From NCBI GenBank assembly GCA_046329055.1, contig JAXLVK010000023.1:2219-66218 (forward strand): DNA of 64,000 nt. Direction: 5' to 3'. A program made the position numbers and the translations under genes. This DNA comes from Bacteroidia bacterium. Its GTDB lineage: Bacteria; Bacteroidota; Bacteroidia; J057; JADKCL01. Positions within the stretch are counted from its first letter, which is position 1. Each line of letters starts with the position of its first letter. Shown in pieces: positions 1-30,492 of this stretch. The notes below the pieces were generated by a model that was given only the letters and a program-made list of their open reading frames with translations, had not been told where the DNA came from and did no database searches.

Positions 1-312
1 GACCCAGTCGCCGTCCACGTACATGTCGATGCCTTGGCTGTCGAAGTCGAATTGGGTGCTCGCATTCTTTTGGTGAACCATGTCCAGGTGCCCTTGCAGG
101 ACCACGGGCTGCCGATTCTCCATCCCGAGGGTGGCCGGCTTGCGGATGATCACATTGCCGACTTCATCGACAATCGTCTCCAGTCCCAGGGATTCGCCGA
201 ATGCCTTCATGAAGGCCGTCACACGCTCCTCCTTCTTGGAAGGCCGGGGTACCGCGTTGAGGTCGGCAAAATAGTTCCAAACAGCTAAGGGTTCTAGCGA
301 GCGAATTTCCAT
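1..312 (-). CDS. pepD: Xaa-His (aminoacyl-histidine) dipeptidase PepD, N-terminal 104 codons; gene continues past the left edge
   Basis: Not in the ORF track because there is no stop in the window. Own translation from ATG 312..310 gives MEIRSLEPLAVWNYFADLNAVPRPSKKEERVTAFMKAFGESLGLETIVDEVGNVIIRKPATLGMENRQPVVLQGHLDMVHQKN... This follows the PepD (M20C) N-terminal pattern GN.hIRKPAT.GME....V.LQ.HLDMV.QKN. Confidence 0.8.
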   Translation of the reverse strand, partial: MEIRSLEPLAVWNYFADLNAVPRPSKKEERVTAFMKAFGESLGLETIVDEVGNVIIRKPATLGMENRQPVVLQGHLDMVHQKNASTQFDFDSQGIDMYVDGDWV

Positions 313-433
313 AAATACAGTCCACCAATTTCCGGCGGTGAATATAGACCAAATTCGTGGAAGCGCGAAATCAGTTGAAAGGGGACAGGTGACGGTGGAT
401 AGCTGACGCCTTCTGCTGTGCGTGGGGTTCGGC

Positions 434-2350
434 TCAGTGACCGTTGGTTTTGAGGAAGGTATCCACTTGTGCTCTTTTCTCAGAATTGTGCGTGCTGGGC
501 ACTCGGTTGAGGGCCTGGCGGGCCTCAGGGAGGTGTCCGGCATGTGCTTGCATCACGGCGAGGTTCAGCCAGCCTTCCCAGTCGGTGGGAAAAGTCTTGA
601 GCAGGTCGGTTTCTTCTGCAACGGCCTCCGGATACCTACCAGCCAAGTCGAGGAGGCTCGCATGTCCGCTTCGCAGACCGTATTGATAGGGCGCCATGCG
701 GAGGCCATTTTCGAAGGAGCTCAGGGCTCTGTCGATTTGCCCCAGTTCCTGATGGGCCATCCCCTCATACCATTCCAAGGGCATGGCCGATGCAGGATCC
801 AGCTTCGCCGCCCAATTGCCGGCCTTTTTGGCTTTGGCGATGACTTCCTGGGATCGATGTTTCGTTCGCAAGTCACGCAGTTCGAGGATGGAACGGTCCG
901 CACTCAGGCGGTACCCAAAAGTGATCGCCACAACGCACCAGACGGATGCCAGAACAAAGCCTTTTCCCTTCGGCAGCCAAGAAGGTCCTGACTTGCCAGC
1001 TGTTGCCTGCTCCAATGAAACAGCGAACATCCAAAAGAGCATCATGCACTGGAACGGACGCTCCAGCGGGAAGCTGAACCCTGCGTCGATGCCAAATCCC
1101 AGCCATCCCATGAGCAAGCAGAGTCCCAGGATGGGATCGCCGCCCTGGATGCGCCCTGCAGCCATACGAACCGCTCCGACTACGCCCCATGCCCCCATGC
1201 CCAGCATCAACAGCAATCCGAGCACCCCCAATTCGCTGAGCGTCCCGAGGTACTCATTGTGTGGCTGCACGGCGACGCTGAGTCCATAACCGCCCTTGGC
1301 GTCATAGCCCACAAGGCCCGTCTTCTGGATATTCAGCTTCCAGTTGCCCGCTCCGAATCCGTGAATCGGATTTTCCGCGACCAGATCGAGGGTCCGGTGC
1401 CAAGAAATGAACCGAAAGTCAATGCTGCTCGTCTTGGGCGTGACCTCGTGGCCATGCTCCCAGATGTAGTGGAAATTGTAGGTGCCTTCTTTTTGCCCGA
1501 AAACGTAGCGGGTGCCCCAAAATGCCGTGACCAATGCCAATGCCCAAATGCCCAAGGCGATCCATCGCTTCGTTCCATTTGCCTGCTTCCAAATGATCAC
1601 AGGAGCAATGACCGAAGCCGCAAGCAGGACGGGAACCAAGGAGGACCGCGCACCAGAGATCAAAATGCCAGCGACACACAATGCCACAGAAAGCCCGGCA
1701 CCGATTCTCCAGCTCCATTTTTCTAGCCGCAACAGCCCATAAACCGCCCACGGCAGCCCAAAAAGCAGCGCATCCGCGTAGAAATTGGGGTTTTTCATGG
1801 TGCCTTCCGGTATGCCCGGAGTTGCCACAAGGGAAAATGGATCGATGCCACGGGATTGCAGGATTCCGAGCAGGGCTTGCAAGCCGGATGATACGATCAG
1901 GGTCTTGGTGGCGAGGTGCAGCAGGCCAGGGTTGTCCGCAAGGGCCTGCCTCGCGAGGGCAAGAAAGGTCAGGCAAAATGCGAATTGAGCGCAGAGCATC
2001 CACGCTTCCGATGCATTCAAGGCCCAAGCCATCGAGGCCATTCCCCAAGCCAATGCAGGCAAGGCCAACCACCAAAATCGATGGATCGGCTGCGGCGTCA
2101 CGGGCCTTTGGCGGAGGCTCTGAAAGATCATGGGCAGCATTCCCAAGGCCATCACCATCCACTGCGGATACCGCACAGGATCCAGCAATTCCCCCCAATA
2201 CGCAAATGGCATGACCCCGAGAATGGTCACAGCGAAGATCGTCGCAGGCATGGAGATGGAGTTGGGCCGCATCAGGCGACAATTTAGTCGGTTATGGGGA
2301 AATGCCCAGATGTAGGACCCCAGAATCCTGAACCTGCCGCCCTTGTTCAT
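434..2350 (-). CDS. O-antigen ligase (Wzy_C)-like polytopic membrane protein with C-terminal TPR-like domain
   Basis: Track ORF 434..2989, but its first 213 codons are antisense to the 2378..3808 gene. First plausible ATG is at 2350 (alternative 2272). Many hydrophobic helices, a Wzy_C-like loop (VQPHNEYLGTLSELGVLGLLLML), and a soluble helical-repeat tail (EWYEGMAHQELGQIDRALSSFENGLRMAPYQY...). Confidence 0.7.
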   Translation of the reverse strand: MNKGGRFRILGSYIWAFPHNRLNCRLMRPNSISMPATIFAVTILGVMPFAYWGELLDPVRYPQWMVMALGMLPMIFQSLRQRPVTPQPIHRFWWLALPALAWGMASMAWALNASEAWMLCAQFAFCLTFLALARQALADNPGLLHLATKTLIVSSGLQALLGILQSRGIDPFSLVATPGIPEGTMKNPNFYADALLFGLPWAVYGLLRLEKWSWRIGAGLSVALCVAGILISGARSSLVPVLLAASVIAPVIIWKQANGTKRWIALGIWALALVTAFWGTRYVFGQKEGTYNFHYIWEHGHEVTPKTSSIDFRFISWHRTLDLVAENPIHGFGAGNWKLNIQKTGLVGYDAKGGYGLSVAVQPHNEYLGTLSELGVLGLLLMLGMGAWGVVGAVRMAAGRIQGGDPILGLCLLMGWLGFGIDAGFSFPLERPFQCMMLFWMFAVSLEQATAGKSGPSWLPKGKGFVLASVWCVVAITFGYRLSADRSILELRDLRTKHRSQEVIAKAKKAGNWAAKLDPASAMPLEWYEGMAHQELGQIDRALSSFENGLRMAPYQYGLRSGHASLLDLAGRYPEAVAEETDLLKTFPTDWEGWLNLAVMQAHAGHLPEARQALNRVPSTHNSEKRAQVDTFLKTNGH

Positions 2351-2377
2351 CACGGCGGAAATCCTTAGTTTTTTCGG

Positions 2378-3808
2378 ATGAAAGAACGGCTTCTCCTCTT
2401 CCTTGCGGGATGTGGTATTTTTTCCGGGCTGCGGGGGGCGGCACCATTGCCGCTGGACAGCTTGCTTGCGGCTTACCGTACACAGGTCAATGACACCGCG
2501 AGTGTCTCCACCATGGTGCGCATTGGCAGGGCATATTTCTATTCCCAACCCGATTCCAGCAAGTTCTATTATGACCATGCCCTGCAAATGGCGGAGAAAT
2601 GGCAGTATGAATTCGGTTCGGCCTACGCCCTTTTGAACCTTGGCGACTACTACCAATCGCGGGGAAAATACCCGGAGAGTTTGCGGCATTACCTGCGCAG
2701 CCTGTCCATGTTGGAGGCACAGGGGCGGGAGTCCATGGTCGCTAGTTGTCACAACAATATCAGTCTGGTCTATATGGCGATCGGCGCGATGGACGATGCG
2801 ATGGAGCATAGCAAGCTGGCATTGAACTATTACCGGAAAGTGAACCGGATGGAAAATGTCATGAACATCCTGAACAATATGGGCCTGATCCATTTCGGGA
2901 GGGATGAGTTCAAGGAGGCGGAGGCTGCCTACAGGGAATCGTTGGAATTGCGGGAAAAGGCCGGGTCCTACAAGGGTTCTGTGCTCCACAACCTGGGTGA
3001 ATTGATGGCCGAATGCGGGTACAATGACAGTGCGATGTCCTATTTCCAGCTCTCACTCGCGGAGAAAGTCGCGGCCAACCGGGTCACTAACATGCCCACG
3101 ACCTATATCCAAATCGGGTTGCAGCATCGGCTCGCAGGAGACAATGCCAAGGCGATGGGGGCATTCATGACGGGATATGAGATCGCCAAGGAAAGCAACC
3201 TAGAGGCCGACCGGGCGGAGCTGTGCAAGGCGATCGGGGACCTGATGGCGAGCGAAGGAAGGTGGCAGGAGGCCTACCAATTTGAGCATGAGGGACGGAT
3301 GCTCCACGACACGATTTTCAATCCGGATCTGGTCAATGACATGGCACGGTCGGAAGTGGACTATTCCTTGCAGAAAACCGAGGTGGAGCGGAAGGAATTG
3401 CAATTGCGGAAGGAACTGGCGGAGACAGGTCTGCGGAATAGCCGCTGGTTGAGTGGCTTGGCATTGGTCGCACTGGCGGTCGTGAGCGGGCTGCTCATCT
3501 GGATTTACCGACTGAACCTGAAGCGCGGGCAGATCAATCGCGACCTGAACGCCCTCAATGCCGACTTGGAGGAGCGCGTGCAGCAACGGACGGCCTCCCT
3601 GCAGGCGAAGACCGAGGTGCTGGAGCGGCATGCATTTGACCTGTCGCACAGGGTGCGGGGGCCTGTGGCCAGCATATTGGGACTGGCTGCCTTGATCGAT
3701 ACCGAAAACCCTGCCAACCCAAGCAATGCCAAGTACCTCGATGGCATCAAGGCCAAGACCGTGAGCCTGGACCAGGTCCTACACGAGATCAATGCCGGAC
3801 TGGAGTAG
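2378..3808 (+). CDS. TPR-repeat membrane protein ending in a HisKA-type dimerisation/phosphoacceptor domain, with no ATPase domain
   Basis: ATG at 2378. N-terminal signal/anchor, several TPR-like units (AYALLNLGDYYQSRGKYPESLRHYLRSL...), a coiled coil, and one TM (WLSGLALVALAVVSGLLIWIY). An H-box follows (LSHRVRGPVASILGLAALI), and the ORF stops about 55 aa after it. Confidence 0.7.
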   Translation: MKERLLLFLAGCGIFSGLRGAAPLPLDSLLAAYRTQVNDTASVSTMVRIGRAYFYSQPDSSKFYYDHALQMAEKWQYEFGSAYALLNLGDYYQSRGKYPESLRHYLRSLSMLEAQGRESMVASCHNNISLVYMAIGAMDDAMEHSKLALNYYRKVNRMENVMNILNNMGLIHFGRDEFKEAEAAYRESLELREKAGSYKGSVLHNLGELMAECGYNDSAMSYFQLSLAEKVAANRVTNMPTTYIQIGLQHRLAGDNAKAMGAFMTGYEIAKESNLEADRAELCKAIGDLMASEGRWQEAYQFEHEGRMLHDTIFNPDLVNDMARSEVDYSLQKTEVERKELQLRKELAETGLRNSRWLSGLALVALAVVSGLLIWIYRLNLKRGQINRDLNALNADLEERVQQRTASLQAKTEVLERHAFDLSHRVRGPVASILGLAALIDTENPANPSNAKYLDGIKAKTVSLDQVLHEINAGLE

Positions 3809-3907
3809 CCCCGATTACGCGGACGAGAGGATTTCGTAAGCCTCCTCTAATTGTCGCGGAGCGAATTCCGCCCTAAATTGGTACGGAATCAAAAATTTGC
3901 TCCCCGC

Positions 3908-5122
3908 ATGAGGAGGTTTCGTCGCCACCTGTTTCTGCTCCTGCTCCTTCCTGGCACCTGGCTGCCTGCCCAGAACCTCGTGCCCAATCCGAGCTTCGAG
4001 GACACCCTTTCGCTGGGCTGCGACCCCTTCATCAACGGCGAATTTGGCCAACGGGTGCAGAATTGGTACGCGCCGTCCTCTGGCACCCCGGACCATTACA
4101 CCACGCTGAATCCGCAGTCCTGCTGGAATCACCAACCCAATTCCACCTACCCCGGCCCCATTTGCCTGAAGGGTCCCCAAATGCCGCGCACCGGGGATGG
4201 CATGGCGGGCATGTTCCTCTACACCATCGCGACCTTTGAGGACAGGGAATATGTCCAGGTGCACCTCAGCAGCCCCTTGGAGGTCTGTCAGCGGTACGCG
4301 GTCGAGTTTTATGTCTCCTTGGCGGAGTTCACCGAATTCGGCACCAACCGCCTGGGGGCGCACCTGAGTGTGGGGCCCGTTATCATCGGGACGAGTACCG
4401 TGATCACAGCGACTCCGCAGGTAAATGCCCAGGGATTGATCTCCGACACGCAAAATTGGGTGCGCATCGCCGATACCATCACCGCCGATCAGCCTTACGA
4501 TTATCTCACCTTCGGAAATTTCTTTTCGGATGCCGTGACGCAGTTGGTGGCGAACCCGACCTCATCCGGCCTGCCGGGTTGTTATGGGGCCTATTATTAT
4601 CTGGACGACGTTTCTGTGGAGCGCATCTGCCCCCAAGTGGCGATTTCGGGAGCCACGACGCTCTGCTTGGGCGACTCCACGCCGCTCTCGCTCTCGGGTG
4701 TGACATGCTATGACAGCCTGCGTTGGAGCACAGGAGAGACCGCAACGAGCATCACCGTCAAGGACGGCGGCAACTACTTCGTGACCGTGTGGAGCGACTC
4801 CTGCGTCTCGACCGATTCCCTGCACTTGGAGGTGACCGACTGCCCTCCGATGCTCGAAATGGGCAACGTCTTTTCCCCCAATGGCGATGGCCTCAACGAC
4901 CTTTTCCTGCCTGTGACCGCCCAAGCATTGCTGAATGCCGAGTTGTTGATCTATGACCGCTGGGGCAGGCAACTCTGGTCCACGAGGGACATGGGCCAAG
5001 GTTGGGATGGCAAAATCAGCGGCAAGGATTGCCCGGAGGGGGTGTACTACTACACGGTGAGGTACCAAGGCAAGGACCTGAAGCTGGCGCAATCCTCAGG
5101 TGCCCTCACCCTGCTGCGGTAG
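3908..5122 (+). CDS. Secreted protein with T9SS type-B (gliding-motility-associated, CHU_C-like) C-terminal sorting domain
   Basis: Start moved to ATG 3908, giving signal peptide MRRFRRHLFLLLLLPGTWLPAQN. The C-terminus GNVFSPNGDGLNDLFLPV...LLIYDRWGRQLWST...GWDGKISGKDCPEGVYYYTVRY...GALTLLR matches the type-B CTD pattern. Confidence 0.75.
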   Translation: MRRFRRHLFLLLLLPGTWLPAQNLVPNPSFEDTLSLGCDPFINGEFGQRVQNWYAPSSGTPDHYTTLNPQSCWNHQPNSTYPGPICLKGPQMPRTGDGMAGMFLYTIATFEDREYVQVHLSSPLEVCQRYAVEFYVSLAEFTEFGTNRLGAHLSVGPVIIGTSTVITATPQVNAQGLISDTQNWVRIADTITADQPYDYLTFGNFFSDAVTQLVANPTSSGLPGCYGAYYYLDDVSVERICPQVAISGATTLCLGDSTPLSLSGVTCYDSLRWSTGETATSITVKDGGNYFVTVWSDSCVSTDSLHLEVTDCPPMLEMGNVFSPNGDGLNDLFLPVTAQALLNAELLIYDRWGRQLWSTRDMGQGWDGKISGKDCPEGVYYYTVRYQGKDLKLAQSSGALTLLR

Positions 5123-5130
5123 GCGGAGCA

Positions 5131-5829
5131 TCAATCAAAATCTCCCCGGAGCAAGGCGAAGAACCGATCAATCGGAGCCGCAGGGCCTTCCCAACGGCCA
5201 CGTTGCGCCAATTCACCGACACGCTCCAATTCGTCAGCCCCGGGCTTGTGGATGTCCATCGGAACCTTTAGGATGCGGGGATCCTCCCGGTCAAATGGTG
5301 GCGTGACCTTGCTTTCGTACCAGAGCGAAAGCATGTTGATGGGGCAACTCACAAGGATGCGGACTGCCTGTTCGGCGACTTCCCATTCGCGGAGCTTCTC
5401 ATTGATGTCCTCGAAAAATGCAATGCTGTTGGCCAATCGGATGCGGGAGCCGGCCTTGGACTTGCCCCGGGTTTGGAGGTAGCCGACTTGCGCCTTGCCA
5501 TTGCCGCGGACCATGTATTTCTTGATGACCTTGTGCAGGGCGAGTTCGCCGTCCTCAAAATACCCAATCGCGCTGTGTCCAGCTTGGATCAGGATGAGCA
5601 GGAAGGGGGCGGAAACCACTGGCACCTGAACGAGGTACTTCTCCAAGTCGATGTCGGCATCTGGCGGTGGATAGCTGATTGGCATTCGGAAATGCCAAGC
5701 CTGCCCATCGATCTCCCCCGAGAGTTTGTTCTTTTCCCGGTCCCAATCATAGCGGAATCCCGGCTGTGCCAGGAGGTGCGTGAGGAGCTGGTAGGATTTG
5801 TCGTAATGGATGTCACGGCGCGTTTCCAT
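5131..5829 (-). CDS. Vms1/ANKZF1-like release-factor (VLRF1) domain protein, putative peptidyl-tRNA hydrolase/endonuclease
   Basis: 232 aa. FLLILIQAGHSAIGYFEDGELALHKVIKKYMVRGNGKAQVGYLQTRGKSKAGSRIRLANSIAFFEDINEKLREW lines up from memory with the ANKZF1 core (..GGHFAGAVF...HKTFHRYxVRAKRGTAQ...AGANLRRYNE...). That includes the Gln loop (GKAQ). Confidence 0.65.
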   Translation of the reverse strand: METRRDIHYDKSYQLLTHLLAQPGFRYDWDREKNKLSGEIDGQAWHFRMPISYPPPDADIDLEKYLVQVPVVSAPFLLILIQAGHSAIGYFEDGELALHKVIKKYMVRGNGKAQVGYLQTRGKSKAGSRIRLANSIAFFEDINEKLREWEVAEQAVRILVSCPINMLSLWYESKVTPPFDREDPRILKVPMDIHKPGADELERVGELAQRGRWEGPAAPIDRFFALLRGDFD

Positions 5830-5833
5830 GGGG

Positions 5834-5841
5834 CAAATCTA
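5834..5841 (-). promoter_or_regulatory. Candidate Bacteroidota -7 promoter box (TAGATTTG) for the VLRF1 gene; implies a near-leaderless mRNA
   Basis: The minus strand reads TAGATTTG-CCCC-ATG, matching TAnnTTTG only 4 nt before the start codon at 5829. Confidence 0.3.
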
Positions 5842-5927
5842 ATGCGAAACCCACTTTCCGGGCGTATGCCGTATCCAATGGCGCGATTTTCAGGCTCATT
5901 GGTATGACAGGCCATGCCGGGTCGCCT

Positions 5928-5935
5928 TATTTTTG
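5928..5935 (+). promoter_or_regulatory. Candidate Bacteroidota -7 promoter box (TATTTTTG) for the RNA ligase gene
   Basis: TAnnTTTG match 20 nt upstream of ATG 5955. It lies inside the longer track ORF (5904 start), which argues for the 5955 start. Confidence 0.35.
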
Positions 5936-5954
5936 CGGCAGAAATTTTCCAGAG

Positions 5955-6983
5955 ATGAACCCCTTTCAAGGTTATGAAAAGATGCCGGACAGCCTCACCA
6001 AGCTGGGACTTTCCCCGCAAGACATGCGGCTGCTGGAGCGGGTGGAATGGGTGGTGACGGAGAAGGTCCATGGCGCGAATTTCTCCTTTGTATTTGACGG
6101 AGAGCGGCTTGGGTACGCCAAGCGCAAGGAGATGCTGGCCTGGACCGACGATTTTTTCGCCTTCCAATTGGTTGCGGAACGGCTGGACGCAGCGATGATG
6201 CGGCTCTTTGACCGGATCCGGGAGTTGCATCCCTATGATCAGGCTGTGGTTTATGGGGAGCTTTATGGCGGGCACTATCCGCATCCCGAAGTTCCTGCCG
6301 ATGAGCGGGTCCAGCCCATCCAAACGGGGATTTGGTACTCGCCGACGGTGGAATTCGCTGCATTTGACATCGCGGTGGAGCGGCAGGGCGAGCGGACCTA
6401 CCTGGATTTCGTGGAGGTCATGCGACTATGCGAGGCGTCCGGTGTGCCCTGCGTGAAGCCCCTGCACATCGGGAAGCTGAACGATTGTCTCTTTTTCAAT
6501 ACCCGGTTCGATTCCAAGGTCCCCGGCTCATTGGGCCTGCCGGAGCTCAAGCCAAACTTGGTGGAAGGGATCGTGGTGAAGCCCGCGACGAACCTGATGA
6601 TCCCCGGCCCCAAGACCGACATCCGCCCCATTTTCAAGATCAAGAACAAGGAATTCGCTGAGGAGCAGTTCCATGAGGCGCAGAATTGGAGCTATCAGCA
6701 CGAAGGCGCTCCGGCCTCTGAGCGGCTGATGTTCCTGGTGCCGGAGGTGGGCAGGTATGTGAATGCGAACCGCTTGCAGAGCGTGATTTCGAAGATTGGC
6801 GGCTTGAGTGGGGGAGGGGAGGAGCGGAAAATGCAGGTGCAACAAGCGCTAGCAGCGGATGCCTTGGAGACGTTTTGGGAGGAGAACGTCGGGCTGCGGG
6901 AGGACCTGTCGGATGCGGATTTGCGGTGGCTGACCGAGCGGGTGGAGGCGCTTGCTGGGCAGTGTATGTCCGTCATGCCGTAG
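5955..6983 (+). CDS. ATP-dependent RNA ligase, Rnl2 / RNA-editing-ligase-like nucleotidyltransferase
   Basis: Covalent nucleotidyltransferase motifs occur in order: I VVTEKVHGANF (Lys nucleophile), III VVYGELYGG, IV VEGIVVKP, V PIFKIKNKEF. The track start is 5904; ATG 5955 is preferred because of the promoter box. Confidence 0.8.
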   Translation: MNPFQGYEKMPDSLTKLGLSPQDMRLLERVEWVVTEKVHGANFSFVFDGERLGYAKRKEMLAWTDDFFAFQLVAERLDAAMMRLFDRIRELHPYDQAVVYGELYGGHYPHPEVPADERVQPIQTGIWYSPTVEFAAFDIAVERQGERTYLDFVEVMRLCEASGVPCVKPLHIGKLNDCLFFNTRFDSKVPGSLGLPELKPNLVEGIVVKPATNLMIPGPKTDIRPIFKIKNKEFAEEQFHEAQNWSYQHEGAPASERLMFLVPEVGRYVNANRLQSVISKIGGLSGGGEERKMQVQQALAADALETFWEENVGLREDLSDADLRWLTERVEALAGQCMSVMP

Positions 6984-7014
6984 AGAAAGGTCGAGAGCTT
7001 TCCCTCAGGAATGC

Positions 7015-7449
7015 TCACAGGAAATATGTGAAATCGTTGAATGTCTCGTCGGAGCGGATTCCGCCTGTGGCTGAAAAGAGGGCTTGGCCCTCAACATTGT
7101 CCGTCCCCGTTCCCAGCCAAAGCTCTGTGACGCCGTCCGCCTTCAATGCCTGACGAAGGTGGTCCATGAGGCCCCGGCCTGCTCCTAGGCGTCGGTACTC
7201 CTCCTCCACGCCGATGTCGTAGAGGTAGGCCATGTAGGCTGGCTCATAAAGGGATGGGAATCGGTAAGCCAATGCATATCCGATGGGTTTCGCATCCCAC
7301 AAAGCTGCAAAAAGGTAGGTGCGGTCATCGGCAAGCATCTTGTCCAGGTGTCCCCAGTCCGCGCGCTCCACGACATCGTCAATCAGCTGAGTGACAATGG
7401 TGTTCAGGACCTCACGGTCATCGGGAGAGACTCGAATGATCTGTAACAT
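7015..7449 (-). CDS. GNAT family N-acetyltransferase
   Basis: Start moved to ATG 7449 (MLQIIRVSPDD...). Acetyl-CoA motif A-like segment is present: VEEEYRRLGAGRGLMDHLRQALKADG. Confidence 0.75.
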   Translation of the reverse strand: MLQIIRVSPDDREVLNTIVTQLIDDVVERADWGHLDKMLADDRTYLFAALWDAKPIGYALAYRFPSLYEPAYMAYLYDIGVEEEYRRLGAGRGLMDHLRQALKADGVTELWLGTGTDNVEGQALFSATGGIRSDETFNDFTYFL

Positions 7450-7503
7450 AGTTGCAATAGGATGTCTATGGAGACTCGCAGGTGGTGCCAGAGACGCGGA
7501 TGC

Positions 7504-7567
7504 CAATTCATCCGTAGGGACAGGTCGTGCCATGGGGACAATTCCCGCCGTAGGGACAGATCGTCCC
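7504..7567. repeat. Tandem direct repeat, 2 copies of about 28 bp with about 36-bp period, in the parC/GNAT intergenic region
   Basis: Copy 1 (7504-7531) reads CAATTC-AT-CCGTAGGGACAG-G-TCGT-GCC. Copy 2 (7539-7567) reads CAATTC-CCG-CCGTAGGGACAG-A-TCGT-CCC. Confidence 0.6.
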
Positions 7568-7594
7568 GATTCATCTGGAACCCGACGGCGGGAA

Positions 7595-10297
7595 TCAAAA
7601 CAAGGACATCTGGTCGTCGCCCTTGCCTTTTGGCTTCTTCTTGGACTTGGATTCTTCCTCCTCGTTCAGGCCTTCGTCGGCGTCGCGTGCATCGATGATC
7701 TCAAATGGGATGTCTCCGGAGCCTTCCTCCTCACCACCGGATTCACCATCCTCGCCGCCACCCTGCGCGGACTCGGAAGATGACTTGGCCTCCGGCTCAC
7801 GGAAGCTGAGCAGTTCGATCTTCTTGATTTTGTCGTCGGTGAGCTTGTTGCCCACGGCCTTCCAACCCTTCACGTCGATGAACTCTTCCAGGTTCAGCAC
7901 CAGGTCCTCCAAGGTCTTCTTGGTGAACTTGATCTCGACAATTGGCGCTTCCTTGGTCGTGGCGAAGAGCAGCTTGGCGCCCTCCGCGTCCGCGATGAAC
8001 ACGAACTTCTGGTCGATTGTGCTGGTCTCGATGCGGAAACGCTTCACGAAGACCCTTCCGGATTCCCCGTCCTGATGCACGGCCGTGACCACGGTCTCCG
8101 CGTCGAGTTTGCACATTTCCAGGATCTTGCCCCGGCCTTCCCAGCGGTTGGTCACGTCAAATGTCCGCAGCTCATAGTAACCCTCGGCGTAGAGCACCAG
8201 GATGCGATCGGCCCCCTTGAAGTTGCCGACGTAGGTGCCTTGGCCGTCGGTATTGAGGCGCTTGACGATGTCGTCGTAGTGGATGTTAATGCCGCCCAGG
8301 GTGGACACGCCCTTGCTCTTGAACTCGACCTTGTTGACTGGGAACTTGGAAACGAGGTAGCCCCCAGCGGCGCGGCCCTTGATGGAGTCGGCACCGAAAT
8401 CGTAGTCAAACTGCGATTTCACCAACTTGTTGTCGGTTTTGAGCTTGACGGAGACGGTCTCGCCCTCGCCGTTGGGCATCACCGAGAAGTAGTGGACCTT
8501 GCCGGGCTGCTCGCTCTTGGTGAGGAAGTACTCCTTGTCACGGGTGATCGCGTTGACATGGAAGCGCTTCGCGTATGTGCGGCTGTCCTTCTTGTCGGTA
8601 TAGATCATGTGGTAGGTCGTGCGCTCGTCGCTTTTCTTCCAAACCCCGACATGGATCATGCCTTTGCCCACAAATGCCTTGTCCGTGACCTTGATCACCT
8701 TCATCGCCCCGTTTTTCAGGAAGACAATGATGTCATCGAGGTCGGAGCAGTCGCTGATGAACTGCGCGGACTTGAGCGAAGTGCCCACACCCACAAAGCC
8801 CTCCTCGAAGTCGGCATAGAGCTTCTTGTTCGCAATGACGACTTGAGTGGCATTGATTTGGTCGAAGGTGCGGATTTCGGTGCGGCGCTCGCGGCCCTTG
8901 CCATACTTGTCCAGCAGGTGCTCGAAGTAGGCGATCGCGAAGTCCACGAGGTGGGCGAGGTCGTATTTGACCTGCTCCAAATCCTCCTCCAGCTTCTTGA
9001 TGGCCTCGTCGGCCTTGAAGCTGTCGTATTTGGAGATGCGCTTGATGCGGATTTCAGTCAGCTTCTCGATGTCATCGCGGGTCACCTCGCGGAACAAGAG
9101 GTGCTTGAACGGATCCAATCCCCGGTCAATCGCCGCGATCACGCCTTCCCAGGTCTCTTCTTCCTCGATGTCGCGGTAAATGCGGTTCTCGATGAAGATC
9201 TTTTCGAGGGATGACATGTGCCATTTGTCCTCCAGTTCGCCCTTCTTGATCTCGAGCTCCAGCCGCAGCAACTCCTTGGTATGGTCGGTGCTCATCTTGA
9301 GCAACTCGCGCACGTCCGTGAAGAGGGGCTTCTCATTCTCGATGATGCAGCAGTTGGGGGAGATGGGCGACTCGCATGCTGTGAAGGCATAGAGGGCATC
9401 GATCGTGAGGTTGGTGCGCGCGTCCGGTGGCAGGTGGATGAGGATGTTCACGTTCTTGGCCGTGATGTCCTCTACCTTGCGGATCTTGAGCTTGCCCTTT
9501 TCGTGGGCCTTGACGATGCTGTCGATGAGGGAGACGGTCGTCTGCCCGTAGGGGATCTCGGTGATGGCGAGGGTTTTCTTGTCGATCTCCTCGATTTTGG
9601 CGCGAACCCGCACCTTGCCACCGCGCTTGCCGTGGTTGTAGCCCTCGACGTCGATCATGCCACCCGTCGGGAAGTCGGGGTAGAGCTTGAAGGGACGGCC
9701 CTTGAGGTAGGCGATGCTTGCCTCCACGAGTTCACGGAAGTTGTGCGGCAGGATCTTGGTGCTCAAGCCCACTGCGATGCCCTCGACCCCGTGCGCGAGC
9801 ACAAGCGGGAACTTCATCGGCAGGGTGATGGGCTCGTTTTTGCGGCCGTCGTAACTGAGCTGCCAGTTTGTGGTCTTGGGGTTGAATGCGACCTCCAAGG
9901 CGAACTTGGTGAGGCGTGCCTCGATGTAACGGGGGGCCGCTGCGGAGTCACCCGTGTAGATATTGCCCCAGTTTCCCTGGGTCTCGACCATGAGGTCCTT
10001 TTGCCCCATGTTCACCAGCGCATCCCCGATGGCTTGGTCGCCGTGAGGGTGGTACTGCATGGTATAGCCAATGATATTGGCGACCTTGTGGAAACGCCCA
10101 TCGTCCAGCTCGTACATGCTGTGCAGGATGCGGCGCTGCACCGGCTTGAGTCCGTCCTCCAAATAGGGGACGGCACGGTCCAGAATCACATAACTGGCAT
10201 AATCAAGGAACCAATTCTGATACAATCCGGAGACGGGCAGCACCTCCTCCATGTCCCCGTCCATTGGTTCCAGGTCGTTGTGTTCAATGTCGCTCAT
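7595..10297 (-). CDS. parC: DNA topoisomerase IV subunit A (Bacteroidota-type ParC) with acidic/lysine-rich C-terminal tail
   Basis: YQNWFLDYASYVILDRAVPYLEDGLKPVQRRILHSM...VANIIGYTMQYHPHGDQAIGDALVNMGQ...AAPRYIEARLTKFA. The track start 10303 is GTG; the first ATG is at 10297. Confidence 0.9.
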   Translation of the reverse strand: MSDIEHNDLEPMDGDMEEVLPVSGLYQNWFLDYASYVILDRAVPYLEDGLKPVQRRILHSMYELDDGRFHKVANIIGYTMQYHPHGDQAIGDALVNMGQKDLMVETQGNWGNIYTGDSAAAPRYIEARLTKFALEVAFNPKTTNWQLSYDGRKNEPITLPMKFPLVLAHGVEGIAVGLSTKILPHNFRELVEASIAYLKGRPFKLYPDFPTGGMIDVEGYNHGKRGGKVRVRAKIEEIDKKTLAITEIPYGQTTVSLIDSIVKAHEKGKLKIRKVEDITAKNVNILIHLPPDARTNLTIDALYAFTACESPISPNCCIIENEKPLFTDVRELLKMSTDHTKELLRLELEIKKGELEDKWHMSSLEKIFIENRIYRDIEEEETWEGVIAAIDRGLDPFKHLLFREVTRDDIEKLTEIRIKRISKYDSFKADEAIKKLEEDLEQVKYDLAHLVDFAIAYFEHLLDKYGKGRERRTEIRTFDQINATQVVIANKKLYADFEEGFVGVGTSLKSAQFISDCSDLDDIIVFLKNGAMKVIKVTDKAFVGKGMIHVGVWKKSDERTTYHMIYTDKKDSRTYAKRFHVNAITRDKEYFLTKSEQPGKVHYFSVMPNGEGETVSVKLKTDNKLVKSQFDYDFGADSIKGRAAGGYLVSKFPVNKVEFKSKGVSTLGGINIHYDDIVKRLNTDGQGTYVGNFKGADRILVLYAEGYYELRTFDVTNRWEGRGKILEMCKLDAETVVTAVHQDGESGRVFVKRFRIETSTIDQKFVFIADAEGAKLLFATTKEAPIVEIKFTKKTLEDLVLNLEEFIDVKGWKAVGNKLTDDKIKKIELLSFREPEAKSSSESAQGGGEDGESGGEEEGSGDIPFEIIDARDADEGLNEEEESKSKKKPKGKGDDQMSLF

Positions 10298-10320
10298 GTT
10301 CACGCGCGCAAAATGGAGGG

Positions 10321-10328
10321 CAAATCTA
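10321..10328 (-). promoter_or_regulatory. Candidate -7 promoter box (TAGATTTG) upstream of parC
   Basis: The minus strand matches TAnnTTTG 23 nt upstream of ATG 10297. Confidence 0.35.
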
Positions 10329-10427
10329 ACCCTCGCACCCTTGCCAGGAAAGGCAATCTATCAACACTCTACCTGTGAATGATTGGGAAATGAGCAAAAA
10401 TCGGACAAATTTAGGAGTGCCTCCTCC

Positions 10428-11264
10428 TCAATTCCGCCGCGGTAGGCAGACGACCGGCATCCGGCCCTTGGTCACGACCTCCTCGACGATGCTCCCCAGT
10501 GTGAGCTGCCCGAGGTCCGCGAAGTTGTGGTGCTCCAATAAGACGAGGTCGAAGATGCCCACATCAAGCCGCAATTGATCCATCATGGCTCCGTAAGGGT
10601 CTTGGTCCCGGACAATGTCCACTTGGAAGTTCTCAATTCCATGGCCGCGCAGTTGCTCGACGAGGAACTCCGTTGCAGTCCGCACAGCCGTCTCGTCCTC
10701 CTCGGGTGCCATCGCCGTGATGATCAACGCTGACTTCGCAAGGGGATGGTCCAGTGACTCCATAAAGTCCAGCAATCCGCCTACCCCAAACTTCCGGTCC
10801 ATTGGAATCAGGACCTCGCGGATTTCCTGCACCGTGGGCGCGGACTCCACCACGACCAGGGGCACCTCGGCGGCCTTGATCAGGTGCAAGGTGTTCTCGC
10901 CAATGAAGATGTCCTCCAAAATGCGGCCCTCGCGCAGTCCCACGAACAGCGCCTGCGCCTCATGGTCATGCACGGATTCCATCAGTTGACGGGTGACGTC
11001 GCCTTTGCGGAGCTCGAATTCGGCCATGATGCCCCGCTCGCGGATGGGGCTGAGGACGAGGTCCATCGCCGCCTCCAGATCCTCTTCGATCGTATCAAGG
11101 TCCACATTGAGATGCCCCGGATAGTTGAAGGACTTCTCCACCACATGGACAGCCAAAATCCGGCCTTTGTATTCAGTGGCGAACCTTGCGGCCATCTCCA
11201 ATGCGTTGATGGAAGGGGACCAGAAGTCGATCGCGACCAAGAAGAGGTTGTCAGAAGATTGCAT
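10428..11264 (-). CDS. Universal stress protein, tandem UspA domains
   Basis: 278 aa with two Usp-like halves (LVAIDFWSPSINALEMAARFA...ILAVHVVE; ...VPLVVVE... and ...GSIVEEVVTKGRMPVVCLP). Confidence 0.8.
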   Translation of the reverse strand: MQSSDNLFLVAIDFWSPSINALEMAARFATEYKGRILAVHVVEKSFNYPGHLNVDLDTIEEDLEAAMDLVLSPIRERGIMAEFELRKGDVTRQLMESVHDHEAQALFVGLREGRILEDIFIGENTLHLIKAAEVPLVVVESAPTVQEIREVLIPMDRKFGVGGLLDFMESLDHPLAKSALIITAMAPEEDETAVRTATEFLVEQLRGHGIENFQVDIVRDQDPYGAMMDQLRLDVGIFDLVLLEHHNFADLGQLTLGSIVEEVVTKGRMPVVCLPRRN

Positions 11265-11367
11265 TCGCGAAAATGTCCGGCGATTGGGCCAGCCTACTGC
11301 ACAAAGATCGAATTTTCAGCCAATCCTCCGCCATGATGACGAGATTCATGCAGGTCGCGGGAATAAG

Positions 11368-12159
11368 TCATTCCTCCGGCTGAGCGAACCGGGTTGCAAT
11401 CATTTGGGAGAGTTCCCGGTACAGCCGCTCCAGCCGCTCGTCGCGTTCGTGGAGGATGTCGAGATGCTTGTCCATGGTGAGGTCATCCCCCCGCCTCGCC
11501 GGTCCAGTCTGTGCCGCAAATGGGCCATGCCGCAGGGCTTTTTCCATGCATTCCCGGATCAATGGCGCATACACGTCCAGTCCGGAGGTGCCTGCTCCCC
11601 GCACGATGTCCTCCGCGATGAGCCACATGTAATTGGAGAAGTTGCTGGCGAAGACGGCCCCGAGGTGGAGTTGCAGGCGCTGCTGCGAGTCCATGACCTC
11701 CACGCGGCTGCTAAGGTGGTCCGCCAGCGGACGCAGGCGCTCAAGCACGGCATCGGCCCCCTCCAGAAAGATCGGCACGGTGCGGAAATCGGTCGCGAGG
11801 CCCCGAGTGAAGGTCTGCAAGGGGTAAAACACCCCAATATTTTCCCCGAACGGCGCCAATTCGCTCATCGCCACCGAGCCTGCGGTATGCGCGACCACGA
11901 TCCCGTGGCCGAGGTGCGGTGCATACACCCGTGCGATCTCCCCGATGCCATGATCCGTGCTCGCGACGATCACCAGGTCGAGGTCCTTGCGCAAGTTGGA
12001 GGGACCCATGCCCACGGCGATGTTTGGGAAATCCCGTGCGATCCGTCCTGCGGAGTCGAGGTGCCGCGAAAAGACCTGCACGATCTCGAACTCGGAGCCT
12101 TTCAGGGCCGATGCCAAGTTCCAGGCGAGATTGCCTGCGCCGATAAGGGCGATCTTCAT
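11368..12159 (-). CDS. Rossmann-like / DUF2520 domain protein (ProC-like fold)
   Basis: Start moved to ATG 12159 (MKIALIGAGNLAWNLASAL). The C-terminal motif PARRGDDLTMDKHLDIL is typical of DUF2520. The start lies 1 nt after the ccmF stop (12161-12163), so the genes are probably co-transcribed. Confidence 0.7.
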   Translation of the reverse strand: MKIALIGAGNLAWNLASALKGSEFEIVQVFSRHLDSAGRIARDFPNIAVGMGPSNLRKDLDLVIVASTDHGIGEIARVYAPHLGHGIVVAHTAGSVAMSELAPFGENIGVFYPLQTFTRGLATDFRTVPIFLEGADAVLERLRPLADHLSSRVEVMDSQQRLQLHLGAVFASNFSNYMWLIAEDIVRGAGTSGLDVYAPLIRECMEKALRHGPFAAQTGPARRGDDLTMDKHLDILHERDERLERLYRELSQMIATRFAQPEE

Positions 12160-12160
12160 C

Positions 12161-15100
12161 TCAGGACTCTTTGTGTTCGGGGAAAGTGGGGTCCTCCGGG
12201 GCCAGGGCCTTGCCGGTGCGGTTCTCGCGGATGCGCCGCCACATCGCCATCCCAAAGCCAATCGTCAGCACAAATGTGCCCAGCCACAGGAGGTTGATCC
12301 AGGGCTTTTGGATGGCTTGGATCACCACGATGTCATCCGGTGGATTCAGCTGCTCCTGCACTTGGATGTTCACTTTGCCGATTTCCGTGTTCACCCCCGT
12401 GAATGCCACCGAGGTGTAGAGGTCGTCGAGGTAGTGGTCCTTGATGGAGACGCGATTTTCCTTGTCGATGCGGTAGATCGGCGTCGCCTCCACCACCTTG
12501 CCCAGGTCCGTCAGGATGCGGATGTGCGCCTTGGCGATCAACTCGTATTCCGTGCCTTCGATCGGATCGGAAGTGATGCGGTCGAAGACCATCTTGGCGC
12601 GGGCCGTCTGCACGGTGTCGCCCACAGCCATCTGGAAATTGTAAAACTCAAACTTGGGCTCCTCGTCCTCCTTGACCACTGTGGAGACGTGGACATAGAC
12701 GTCGCGGTCGAGGTAAATCTTGCGGGAGGGGTGGGCGAGCAGGCCCATTGAAGGATTGACTTCGGCCTCGGGATAGACCACAAACGCATTGTCTTCCCAG
12801 AGCAGGTCCTTTTGGGTCACTGGGTCGCGGCGGCGAGGCACGAATCGCAGGCCATAGAGCGTGCGGCCATTGATATGCTCAGGCTTGAGGAACTTGAGCT
12901 TGTCGTTCATGAAGGCCTCAACAGCAGGCAGGTTGATGGCACCTGTGGGGGAGGTGAAAACATCCTTGGGCAGGACAAATGCGAAAACATCGCCCGTGGC
13001 GTCGCGGAACTTCAGTTTGAAGCTTGCTTCCTCCTCTTGGATCACGCTCAGGTCGGAAATGGGCGCAATGGCCTCCTTCTTGCCCACGTAGGTGACTTGG
13101 AAATCCTTGATGTTCCGGGCGAGGCCCTTTTGGAGGAGGACATTGTCGTTGCGGGATTCGGCACTGAGGGAGGCGAGCTCGTTGGGATTGGTGTTCAGGG
13201 TGAGCACCTGATCGTAGCCGCTGCTGAAGAAGATGCCCAGGAGCATGAGCGCGAAGCCGATGTGGGCAATGGAGCCACCCGTGACACGCCATCTGCCGCC
13301 GCCCTTGGCAAGCAGGCCGATGAGGATGTCCAAGTTGGCGAGCACCATGAACAGGGCCGAAAACAGCAGGATTTCGTCCGCGAAGATGAAGGTCGCCCAA
13401 GCGATGTACCGCATGGCCGAGGTGATGAAATTCGTCTCCGCATCCGCCTGCTCCTTCCAGACCGCGAGTTGGTCATCGAGGGAGAACTGCCAGTCGGTGC
13501 CGAGGGCGATCGCGAACAAAATCACAATCGCCAAGCCGATGGCGGTGATGTAGGGGCGGAGCAGGGAGTTCCATTTGTCCTTTTTGCGGACCTTGCTCCA
13601 GAACATGAACTGCCCGATCCCCGAAAGGATGGCCAATGCGACAGCGCAGTACACCGTCCAGCGGTAGTAGAAAAAGCCCACATGCGCCGGAGGGGCCCAG
13701 TTTGTCCCGAGGATCTTGTTCAGCACCGGGACCGAGGTGAAGTTGGTGATCACAACCCCAGCCGTCACCAATGCGGAGACACCCAGGAAGATCACAAACT
13801 CGGCGGACTTGAATTGAATGCCTTTGGAACTTTTGGGGAGTTCCTTGGAGCGGGCGGTGAGGATGGCAGTGATGTCAAACACGAACGCGAACAGCAGCAC
13901 CAGCAACTGCCCGCTCAGGCCGAGGTCGGTGAAGGTATGGACGGACGTGTCGCCCAGGATGCCGCTTCGGGTGAGGAAGGTGCTGTAGAGCACCATCAGG
14001 AACACAGACACGACCAGCACCAATGTCAGGCCGAGGAAGGCCTTGTTTTTGCGGTAGGCGATCACGGCATGCAGCGCGGCGACCCCAAAAATCCACGGCA
14101 CGAAGCTGGAATTTTCCACCGGGTCCCAGTTCCAGTAGCCGCCGAAGTTCAGCGTCTCGTAGGCCCAATACCCGCCCATGATGATGCCCACGCCCAGGAT
14201 CGCCACCGAGAAGATCATCCAAGCCGATGCTGGGCGAATCCATTCACTGAATTTGCCCTGCATCACTCCTCCGATCACAAATGCGAAGGGATGGTCGTGG
14301 ACGCAAATCCGAGGAATAGAGTTGGAGGGTGGATCACCATCCAGTAATTCTGCAACAGGGAGTTGAGGCCCTTGCCGTTGACAGGAGCGAAGTCTGGACC
14401 AGAAGCAAAAATCGGGGCATCCGGGAAGGCGTCTTTCAGCGAAATGAACGGCGACGAACCGATTTTCCATACCCCAAAGTCAGCGACGCAGACCACCAGA
14501 GACATGGTAGTGAGCAGGAACAGCGACAGCAACTCCTTGCGATCCCCTGATCGGGCCTCCTTCTGTACGATATGCCGTACCACCAGAATCATCACGGCCA
14601 CGATCGCAAGTATCACCAGCAGGTACATGGCCTTGAAGCCCAGGGCCCCTTCCTTCATCAGGTTGCTGAATCCGTCTGCGGCGAAGCCTGCCTTGCCACT
14701 GAAGGCGACATAGAGCGTGAACATTCCCAATGCCACGCGACCATGGGCAGGATGCCATTGGTGCGGAGGGTGTCCTGCTCACGTTTGTAAATCCGCCAAG
14801 CGAGATAACCCATAGGGGCCAGGACGGCGAGGCTGAAAAGCGCGATCCCTACTGCCGTGGGGATGTAAACCCCCAGGATCATTGAAGCCAAGATCAGGTT
14901 CACGCCAGCGACCACCGAGAGCACGATGTCCCGCCATTTGCCAGCTGTGAAATAGAGGATAGACCCCAAAACCGCATGCCAGAATCCCCAGAGCAGGAAG
15001 CTGCCTTCCTGTCCCTCCCAGAAGCAGGAGAGCATGTATTCGAGCGGGAGTTCGTTGGAGCTATGGCTCCAGACGTAGTGGTAGCGGTAGTCGTGGGTAT

Positions 15101-30420: not shown

Positions 30421-30492
30421 TAGCCCCGCCAAGAATTGAACTTGGATCTGGTGTTTAGGAAACACCTGTTCTATCCATTGAACTACAGGGCC
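30421..30492 (-). tRNA. tRNA-Arg (anticodon CCU)
   Basis: Minus strand: GGCCCTGTAGTTCAATGGATAGAACAGGTGTTTCCTAAACACCAGATCCAAGTTCAATTCTTGGCGGGGCTA. It folds as a cloverleaf with a 7-bp acceptor stem, D arm GTTC/GAAC, anticodon stem GGTGT/ACACC with loop TTCCTAA, and T arm CCAAG/CTTGG with TTCAATT. CCA is not encoded. Confidence 0.9.

Follow-up and report, generated by a model that had tools for sequence, protein, structure and literature searches.

Genes and features of the locus

The window, by which we mean the whole 64-kb stretch of DNA analysed here, contains a pair of divergently oriented genes: one for a release factor-like protein of the bVLRF1 family and one for an RNA ligase of the Rnl2 family (Table 1). 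The sequence blocks on which the sequence-only reading had based its assignment of the release factor (QAGHSAIGYF, HKVIKKYMVRGNGKAQ and KAGSRIRLANS) are all found in the minus-strand open reading frame, as are the ligase motifs quoted there (KVHGAN, VVYGELYGG, EGIVVKP, FKIKNK) in the plus-strand one. The gap of 125 bp between the genes and their divergent layout with separate promoters, each gene having its own TAnnTTTG box on its own strand, were likewise recovered. The open reading frame of the ligase was given correctly, but its length needs a small correction, the 343 aa stated for the protein including the stop codon (342 aa and stop). An ATG further upstream (5904), which would extend the ligase to 359 aa, was considered as an alternative start and rejected: homologues begin at MNxF..YEKMP, the equivalent of 5955, and the start is therefore placed at this position. 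An Rfam scan of the whole window returned one tRNA only (30421-30492), and the intergenic region was without a match.

Table 1. Positions of the genes, promoter boxes and catalytic motifs of the divergent pair within the window
Feature	Position	Strand	Description
bVLRF1 gene	5131..5829	-	232-aa Vms1-like release factor with eRF1-central-domain fold; assigned by ORF, PF18826, profile and model
Rnl2-family RNA ligase gene	5955..6983	+	342 aa; nucleotidyltransferase domain and Rnl2-type C-terminal domain
Divergent intergenic region	5830..5954		125 bp; conserved length, 124-131 bp throughout the linked lineage
GxxQ catalytic-loop equivalent	5488..5499	-	Codons for G111-K112-A113-Q114; reverse complement GGC AAG GCG CAA
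-7 promoter box TAGATTTG	5834..5841	-	4 nt upstream of the bVLRF1 ATG (5829)
-7 promoter box TATTTTTG	5928..5935	+	19 nt upstream of the ligase ATG (5955)
Motif I, TEKVHGAN	6057..6080	+	Adenylylation lysine K37, codon 6063-6065 (AAG)

The release factor

The minus-strand protein matches the Pfam family PF18826 (bVLRF1) over residues 77-205 with E=1.3e-25 and 90.5 bits (cut-off 27). With the actinobacterial acVLRF1 model it reaches no more than 13.8 bits (cut-off 125), and the protein therefore belongs specifically to the bVLRF1 family of Bacteroidota. It is an ordinary member of this family and a new one from an uncultured sludge lineage. The profile built from its homologues matches Vms1 (5WHG) with E=1.3e-9, the blocks HKxxxxYxxRxxxGxxQ and GK..AGS..R..N aligning with their counterparts in the yeast protein. 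In the same alignment the G111-Q114 loop falls on the GGSQ loop of Vms1, and both G111 and Q114 are invariant in 26/26 homologues; the loop glutamine is thus retained, as had been proposed.

An AlphaFold model of the protein (pLDDT 89.8, pTM 0.84, with low pLDDT at residues 111-119, the region of the catalytic loop) shows the RNase H-like fold of the eRF1 central domain, with Vms1 as its nearest relative. The top four Foldseek matches in the PDB (6R84, 5WHG, 6R86 and 6R87, E=8e-7 to 7e-6) are all yeast Vms1, followed by eRF1, aRF1 and Balon, so that the VLRF1 identity claimed from the letters is borne out by the family match and by the best fold match. The title of one PDB entry among the fold matches names a Vms1 Q295L mutant, and we take Q295 to be the residue aligned with Q114. 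Balon and Pelota were returned by the fold search at weaker scores than Vms1, and the release activity of bVLRF-1 is predicted by homology; both points would suit a non-catalytic ribosome-binding factor similar to Dom34/Pelota or Balon. Such a role nevertheless appears very improbable, given that the best structural matches are to Vms1, that the glutamine of the GxxQ loop does not vary among the homologues, and that the blocks surrounding this loop, HK..KYM.R and GKSKAGSR.RLAN, align with the catalytic region of Vms1.

As a catalytic factor, and judged by homology, bVLRF1 would act on obstructed large ribosomal subunits: its GxxQ loop with Q114 would enter the peptidyl-transferase centre, and the tRNA in the P site would be parted from the nascent chain, either by hydrolysis of the ester or by removal of the CCA end. 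No biochemistry for any bVLRF-1 was found in the literature searched. Carriers of the gene which are available in culture (Marivirga, Fulvivirga, Flammeovirga and Rapidithrix) could be used for genetics. In Marivirga tractuosa, bVLRF1 was confirmed, and its neighbourhood showed no ligase.

The RNA ligase

The identification of the plus-strand protein as an Rnl2-family ligase holds as well: it matches PF09414 (RNA_ligase) with E=8.4e-25 and, over residues 255-331, PF18043 (T4_Rnl2_C) with E=5.1e-15. TIGR02307 scores 128.2 bits, under its curated cut-off of 197.15, which makes the protein a member at the level of Pfam and no curated equivalog. Among sequences of known structure it matches TbREL1 (1XDN, 2.8e-16) and T4 Rnl2 (2HVQ, 2e-10). 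Motifs I, III, IIIa, IV and V of the nucleotidyltransferase domain are all intact and align with those of both enzymes, motif I (TEKVHGAN) corresponding to EKVHGTN in TbREL1 and to EKIHGTN in T4 Rnl2; across 18 homologues there is no variation at K37 (TEKVHGAN), E102 (YGELYGG), F137/D138, E204/G205/K209 (EGIVVKP) and K228/K230 (KIKNK). By homology, the enzyme would be adenylylated on K37 and would then seal 3'-OH/5'-phosphate nicks in duplex or otherwise structured RNA.

The subfamily is a conserved, chromosomal one, found across Bacteroidota with a mean column identity of 63%, and the gene at the locus is this lineage's own copy of it. Orthologues with 44-48% identity occur in Chryseobacterium, Chitinophaga, Flavobacterium, Aquimarina, Kordia and Sphingobacterium, none of which appeared in the genome scan for bVLRF1. 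Members of the subfamily are frequently mislabelled as '2'-5' RNA ligase'.

Promoter elements and a predicted leaderless mRNA

Sites of the form TAnnTTTG occur 21 times in the whole window, as compared to 11.6 expected by chance. The TTTG core, the position and the spacing of both boxes are kept in 10/10 non-identical related intergenic regions. At the ligase, the box (CAAAAnTA as reverse complement) is invariant across the 10/10 aligned regions; at the release factor, the three closest relatives (L001-L003 in our locus numbering) carry CA in place of TA, and 10 non-identical related loci have the arrangement [T/C]AnnTTTG-N4/5-ATG in common.

In Bacteroidota promoters the -7 element spans -12 to -5 and leaves 4-5 nt before the transcription start (PMC6847099); a box 4 nt before the bVLRF1 ATG fits this geometry. 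A leaderless mRNA is therefore predicted, in agreement with the earlier proposal, and the promoter layout suggests that the bVLRF1 protein is probably made from it. One of the assembled metatranscriptome contigs (2-6x) ends at 5830, which is weak evidence, and another crosses the intergenic region. A conserved TTT[CT]G lies approximately 8 nt upstream of the bVLRF1 -7 box; its spacing is wrong for a -33 element, and this reading of it was dismissed. A preference for leaderless mRNAs among bVLRF1 genes throughout the family is a tentative and somewhat doubtful extension; if it were true, the rescue factor could be made while canonical initiation is compromised.

In the linked clade the -7 box lies right against the start codon, an arrangement that is possibly commoner across the bVLRF1 family than expected.

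Occurrence of the gene pair

Prokaryotic VLRF-1 proteins have been described as standalone (Burroughs and Aravind 2019, PMC6514570), and neither the ligase neighbour nor a -7 box abutting the ATG is mentioned in the main text of that paper; in the literature searched, no link of bVLRF1 or Vms1 to a bacterial ligase was found. The neighbourhood was surveyed from both sides. The ligase lay 6 kb or less from bVLRF1 in 3/80 genomic loci and was absent in 77/80, the three (L001-L003) being the closest relatives (59-60% identity). Among 80 metagenomic ligase loci, bVLRF1 was near the ligase in one (L093) and absent in 79/80; L093, with an intergenic length of 131 bp, is the sole ligase locus with more than 50% identity to the ligase of the window. 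The expectation that the ligase is conserved beside VLRF1 homologues was thus not borne out, and no neighbour family was found in more than 11/81 loci around bVLRF1.

The wider gene order CcmF-DUF2520-Usp-ParC-[variable]-ligase<>VLRF1-CHU_C...Wzy_C/TPR-M20 is common to all linked loci. Every one of them belongs to a single syntenic lineage, and the adjacency is not conserved across diverse lineages. Two further loci (L084 and L090) have the same wider gene order but lack the ligase, and ParC lies immediately upstream of VLRF1. Since a neighbour-joining tree (without support values) places them within the linked clade, one gain and one loss of the adjacency can be deduced. In Rapidithrix thailandica, the VLRF1 gene lies on contig11 (L058) and the ligase gene on contig23 (L087), so the two are unlinked there.

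The gene order also bears on the suggestion that the pair might form part of a mobile or anti-phage island for RNA repair or defence. RNA ligases are common in conflict systems (PMC6514570), and a gene pair of RloB and AAA_21 lies about 6 kb away in three relatives (L091, L092 and L002). Several unrelated genes, however, stand between the RloB pair and VLRF1, and the RloB pair lies outside the window. PADLOC returned no match for either protein, and the pair is therefore not a known defence system; nor was bVLRF1 seen in the viral contigs scanned. The pair is surrounded by housekeeping genes (ParC, Usp, CcmF, Wzy_C and M20 peptidase) in conserved order, and this conserved chromosomal arrangement contradicts an origin in a defence island, which we regard as largely refuted and extremely unlikely.

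Joint or independent functions

From the adjacency of the two genes, a module for the rescue of damaged tRNA or ribosomes had been proposed. Several genomes do contain the pair, yet the proposal fails by the refutation criterion that came with it, as all of them come from one lineage in which the whole region is syntenic. A more restricted variant would be a coupling within this clade, in which the divergent genes might be co-regulated, bVLRF1 clearing the obstructed 50S subunit and the ligase resealing nicked tRNA or rRNA. The pair persists down to about 59% identity of VLRF1 and 60% of the ligase, in at least nine distinct protein variants, with both boxes and a spacing of 124-131 bp maintained while the flanks vary: ParC and the ligase are separated by a GNAT gene, a Por_Secre_tail protein gene or an unknown one, and not every locus has the CHU_C gene. 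Such stability despite changing flanks would fit some selective pressure for retaining the pair. Coupling would also be in line with the RNA of the translation apparatus being the target of both proteins, with distant relatives of the ligase residing in true RNA-repair cassettes that also contain another ligase and an HD-phosphatase/P-loop kinase, and with prfH-rtcB as a precedent for the pairing of a release factor and a ligase. The depth of metatranscriptome contigs is low and similar over the two genes, but these RNA contigs may include DNA.

Against coupling stand the single evolutionary origin of the adjacency and its loss in L084 and L090 though the VLRF1 gene was kept, its absence from nearly all loci on either side of the survey and the unlinked genes of Rapidithrix. 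The genes moreover do not form an operon, being divergent with separate -7 boxes. Rnl2 requires 3'-OH and 5'-phosphate ends. Cleavage of the Vms1/ANKZF1 type leaves a 2',3'-cyclic phosphate, and the eukaryotic repair that follows cleavage by ANKZF1 proceeds via tRNase Z(S)/ELAC1 and the CCA-adding enzyme rather than via a ligase (10.1101/2021.08.05.455008). No kinase, phosphatase or cyclic phosphodiesterase was found near the pair at the locus, and in the absence of such an end-healing enzyme the chemistry of Rnl2 would not match the product of a Vms1-type factor. Taken together, these points make a lineage-specific coupling unlikely.

The evidence for joint action is not good, because the genes adjoin in only one uncultured sludge lineage of Bacteroidota. 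The likely explanation is that they serve two separate single-gene functions and became neighbours once, in the ancestor of this activated-sludge lineage. We infer this independence of release factor and ligase, as well as both enzymatic activities and leaderless expression, whereas family membership, intact motifs, fold, promoter boxes and the restriction of the adjacency to one lineage are shown directly by the analysis. Among prokaryotic proteins, those of the bVLRF-1 family are most closely related to Vms1/ANKZF1, the release factor of eukaryotic RQC. Had there been a conserved partner gene, it would have given the first clue to their function. In the loci surveyed, the bVLRF1 family has no family-wide partner gene, and the ligase is not one. 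The apparent module of ligase and bVLRF1 is probably an accident of gene order, and follow-up effort on it can be spared.

Comparison with known systems

The ligase shares all nucleotidyltransferase motifs, the lysine of KxHGxN and the Rnl2-type C-terminal domain (PF18043) with T4 Rnl2 and REL1 of Trypanosoma brucei; it differs from T4 Rnl2 in remaining below the equivalog cut-off of TIGR02307 and in belonging to a chromosomal subfamily found Bacteroidota-wide. The pair as a whole resembles prfH-rtcB in that a release factor-like protein is combined with an RNA ligase. The release-factor folds, however, are unrelated (bacterial RF-PH in prfH-rtcB, eRF1-like here), RtcB joins 3'-phosphate to 5'-OH ends whereas Rnl2 joins 3'-OH to 5'-phosphate ends, and prfH-rtcB is widely conserved and co-directional, while the pair described here is divergent and restricted to one lineage.

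In comparison to yeast Vms1, the fold of the core domain matches, and the N-terminal extension of bVLRF1 also lies within the structural alignment. Sequence identity in the structural alignments is just 14-17%, and the activity and the ribosomal substrate of bVLRF1 are predicted. The Rei1 zinc finger, the ankyrin repeats, the VTC domain as well as the VIM motif of Vms1/ANKZF1 (eVLRF-1, the eukaryotic RQC release factor) are all missing from bVLRF1, which therefore has no link to Cdc48. Its closest counterparts are the described members of the bVLRF-1 family (PF18826; PMC6514570), with which it shares the standalone architecture of about 230 aa, a host from the Bacteroidota and the glutamine of the GxxQ loop, and from which it differs in nothing essential.

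Identity of the two proteins

The protein of the release-factor gene matches the Pfam family PF18826 ('Bacteroidetes VLRF1 release factor'; E=1.3e-25, 90.5 bits against a gathering score of 27), which was likewise found in all 87 homologues from a database search, and scores far under the threshold of the NCBI model for actinobacterial acVLRF1. Twenty-six aligned homologues all share G111 and Q114 of the GxxQ loop, together with H99, K100, Y105, M106, R108 and the block G122-K-S..G-S-R.R-L-A133; the profile built from this alignment matches yeast Vms1 structures (E=1.3e-9) and pairs RkkqGkaQ with RRKQGGSQ. An AlphaFold model based on the homologue alignment (pLDDT 89.8, pTM 0.84) is of low confidence only in the Gln loop (residues 111-119), and its top four fold matches in the PDB are all yeast Vms1 (6R84, 5WHG, 6R86, 6R87), followed by eRF1, aRF1 and Balon. 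Burroughs and Aravind named the family bVLRF-1 and placed it closest to eukaryotic Vms1/ANKZF1 (PMC6514570).

The ligase matches PF09414 (RNA_ligase, E=8.4e-25) and PF18043 (T4_Rnl2_C, E=5.1e-15), while its 128 bits with TIGR02307 (Rnl2) lie under the equivalog cut-off of 197. Closest among solved structures are the Trypanosoma brucei editing ligase REL1 (1XDN, E=2.8e-16) and T4 Rnl2 (2HVQ, E=2e-10), with both of which the motif I lysine lines up, and no nucleotidyltransferase motif residue varies among 18 homologues, whose mean column identity is 63%. This family is broad in Bacteroidota (574 proteins at E<=0.001), with orthologues of 44-48% identity in Chryseobacterium, Chitinophaga, Flavobacterium, Aquimarina, Kordia, Sphingobacterium and others.

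Both assignments of the sequence-only reading are therefore borne out, VLRF1 by the family profile, the GxxQ glutamine and the Vms1 profile and fold matches, the Rnl2-family ligase by its Pfam matches and intact motifs; each gene adds a member to a family already known. All peptide blocks quoted in that reading occur in the two ORFs. An alternative ligase start, ATG 5904 (359 aa, same stop at 6983), was ruled out because ligase homologues begin at the position equivalent to 5955, and the genes are thus divergent and 125 bp apart, as originally described. In the first part of the window (1-14000), which is fairly G+C-rich, real genes are often faced by long spurious ORFs on the other strand, making ORF length by itself an unreliable guide.

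Coordinates of features in the window and in homologous loci (L handles)
Feature	Sequence	Position	Strand	Remark
VLRF1 ORF	window	5131-5829	-	232 aa
VLRF1 -7 box to ATG	window	5830-5841	-	TAGATTTG-CCCC-ATG
Mid-intergenic stretch	window	5862-5870		~CCAnT.A
Ligase ORF	window	5955-6983	+	342 aa from ATG 5955
GNAT acetyltransferase	window	7015-7533	-	ParC-ligase slot
Spurious ORF	window	8075-9214	+	inside ParC
Spurious ORF	window	9218-10378	+	inside ParC
Spurious ORF	window	12812-14347	+	inside CcmF-like gene
tRNA gene	window	30421-30492	-	sole Rfam match in the 64-kb window, 65.5 bits
RloB + AAA_15/AAA_21 ATPase	L091	14945-16705
RloB + AAA_15/AAA_21 ATPase	L092	8026-9786
RloB + AAA_15/AAA_21 ATPase	L002	10190-12497

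Promoter elements and the VLRF1 start codon

TAnnTTTG, the Bacteroidota -7 promoter element, occurs at 21 sites in the window against 11.6 expected, and two of these lie within the 125 bp between the genes, one correctly oriented for each. The Flavobacterium johnsoniae element comprises T-12, A-11, T-8, T-7, T-6 and G-5, transcription begins after a spacer of 4-5 nt, and leaders exceed 10 nt in 87% of the transcripts predicted there (PMC6847099); in F. psychrophilum 5.5% of mRNAs are leaderless (PMC9723704). With the spacing of the VLRF1 box, the A of the start codon falls at +1, an arrangement kept throughout the linked clade (the loci with VLRF1 and ligase adjacent), where L001-L003 read CA for TA. 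In the stretch 5808-6060, one sludge metatranscriptome contig (X9) has its end at 5830, the nucleotide just upstream of the VLRF1 ATG, and another from a different run (X14) crosses the entire intergenic region, both at a depth of 2-6x with DNA carry-over possible. Outside the linked clade a -7-like box (at least 5 of 6 positions, ending 3-7 nt before the ATG) stands near the start in 14 of 73 bVLRF1 genes (including L006, L031, L045, L026, L039 and L054) as against 45 of 655 ORFs taken as controls from these loci, an enrichment of about threefold (Fisher p=0.001) which ignores phylogeny and start-codon errors and is therefore a lead rather than a finding. Such sequence patterns hint that the bVLRF1 family may often be leaderless.

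Also partly conserved in the linked clade are the mid-intergenic stretch and, some 8 nt upstream of the -7 box of VLRF1, a TTT[CT]G; as a -33 element both were rejected, since the spacing does not fit.

Adjacency within one lineage

One genome per GTDB species was scanned, giving 80 bVLRF1 loci that were taken with at most 6 kb of sequence either side. Only in three of them (L001-L003) did a tblastn search detect the ligase; these are the three closest relatives (59-60% VLRF1 identity) and are arranged divergently as in the window. Conversely, bVLRF1 stood beside the ligase in one of 80 metagenomic ligase loci, L093 from activated sludge, the sole one more than 50% identical to the window ligase. 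This neighbourhood survey, named beforehand as the decisive check, thus went against a general pairing. Contig look-ups added the linked loci P0002, P0003, P0010 and P0090; the pair is present in at least nine distinct protein variants, and a few more are suggested. Rapidithrix thailandica carries the VLRF1 and ligase genes on separate contigs. When all ORFs of 81 bVLRF1 loci were clustered, no neighbour family occurred in more than 11, in agreement with the published description of prokaryotic VLRF-1 proteins as standalone (PMC6514570).

The linked loci have a common gene order: CcmF, DUF2520, Usp, ParC, a variable slot, ligase, divergent VLRF1, CHU_C (missing from some), a Wzy_C/TPR protein and an M20 peptidase; the window, like its closest relatives L091 and L092, has a TPR/HisKA gene between CHU_C and Wzy_C/TPR. 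L084 and L090 (56% and 53.5% VLRF1 identity) keep CcmF-DUF2520-Usp-ParC-VLRF1-CHU_C with the ligase absent between ParC and VLRF1, and both are nested within the linked clade in a neighbour-joining tree of VLRF1 proteins, drawn without support values. The simplest history of the adjacency is one gain and one later loss. Since every linked locus is from the same lineage and has the same gene order, the association amounts to a single evolutionary event, indistinguishable from inherited gene order. The proposed tRNA/ribosome rescue and repair module is not supported; most probably it reflects a chance gene order peculiar to this lineage.

The ParC-ligase slot holds a GNAT acetyltransferase in the window, a Por_Secre_tail (T9SS) domain protein about 400-530 aa long in L001, L002, L081 and L085, and an unknown 285-aa protein in L091; it looks like a local hotspot of gene gain and loss. 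In some relatives an RloB/ATPase pair (abortive-infection/OLD-like system) follows the M20 peptidase about 6 kb past VLRF1, the equivalent site lying outside the window. PADLOC gave no match for the VLRF1 or ligase protein and no bVLRF1 was found on viral contigs; the region has a chromosomal, housekeeping character. The window sequence occurs in activated-sludge and wastewater metagenomes.

Possible functional coupling and known RNA-repair cassettes

A functional coupling of VLRF1 and ligase specific to this lineage seems unlikely, yet keeps a small share of our belief, since the start codons are 124-131 bp apart in every linked locus, both -7 boxes and little else are kept in an alignment of ten non-identical intergenic regions, and the slots around the pair changed (ParC-ligase slot; CHU_C present or absent) while the pair stayed. 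The expected end chemistry would speak against such coupling. Rnl2-type ligases join 3'-OH and 5'-phosphate ends (PMC3884662), and the product tRNA of ANKZF1 is without its CCA end, bears a 2',3'-cyclic phosphate and is recycled via tRNase Z(S)/ELAC1 and the CCA-adding enzyme (10.1101/2021.08.05.455008; PMC11897441). Joining the cut-off CCA-peptide back on would serve no purpose, and neither a kinase nor a phosphatase or cyclic phosphodiesterase was found around the pair. Textbook RNA-repair cassettes do occur at distant ligase relatives of 34-41% identity (L135, L136, L148, L156, L160, L172). Unlike the window ligase subfamily, which is without a second ligase and HD-phosphatase/P-loop kinase, these combine an Rnl2-like ligase with a second RNA ligase (KMDGAN motif, about 262 aa) and an HD-phosphatase/P-loop kinase fusion, and thereby show the make-up of a real Rnl2 repair module.
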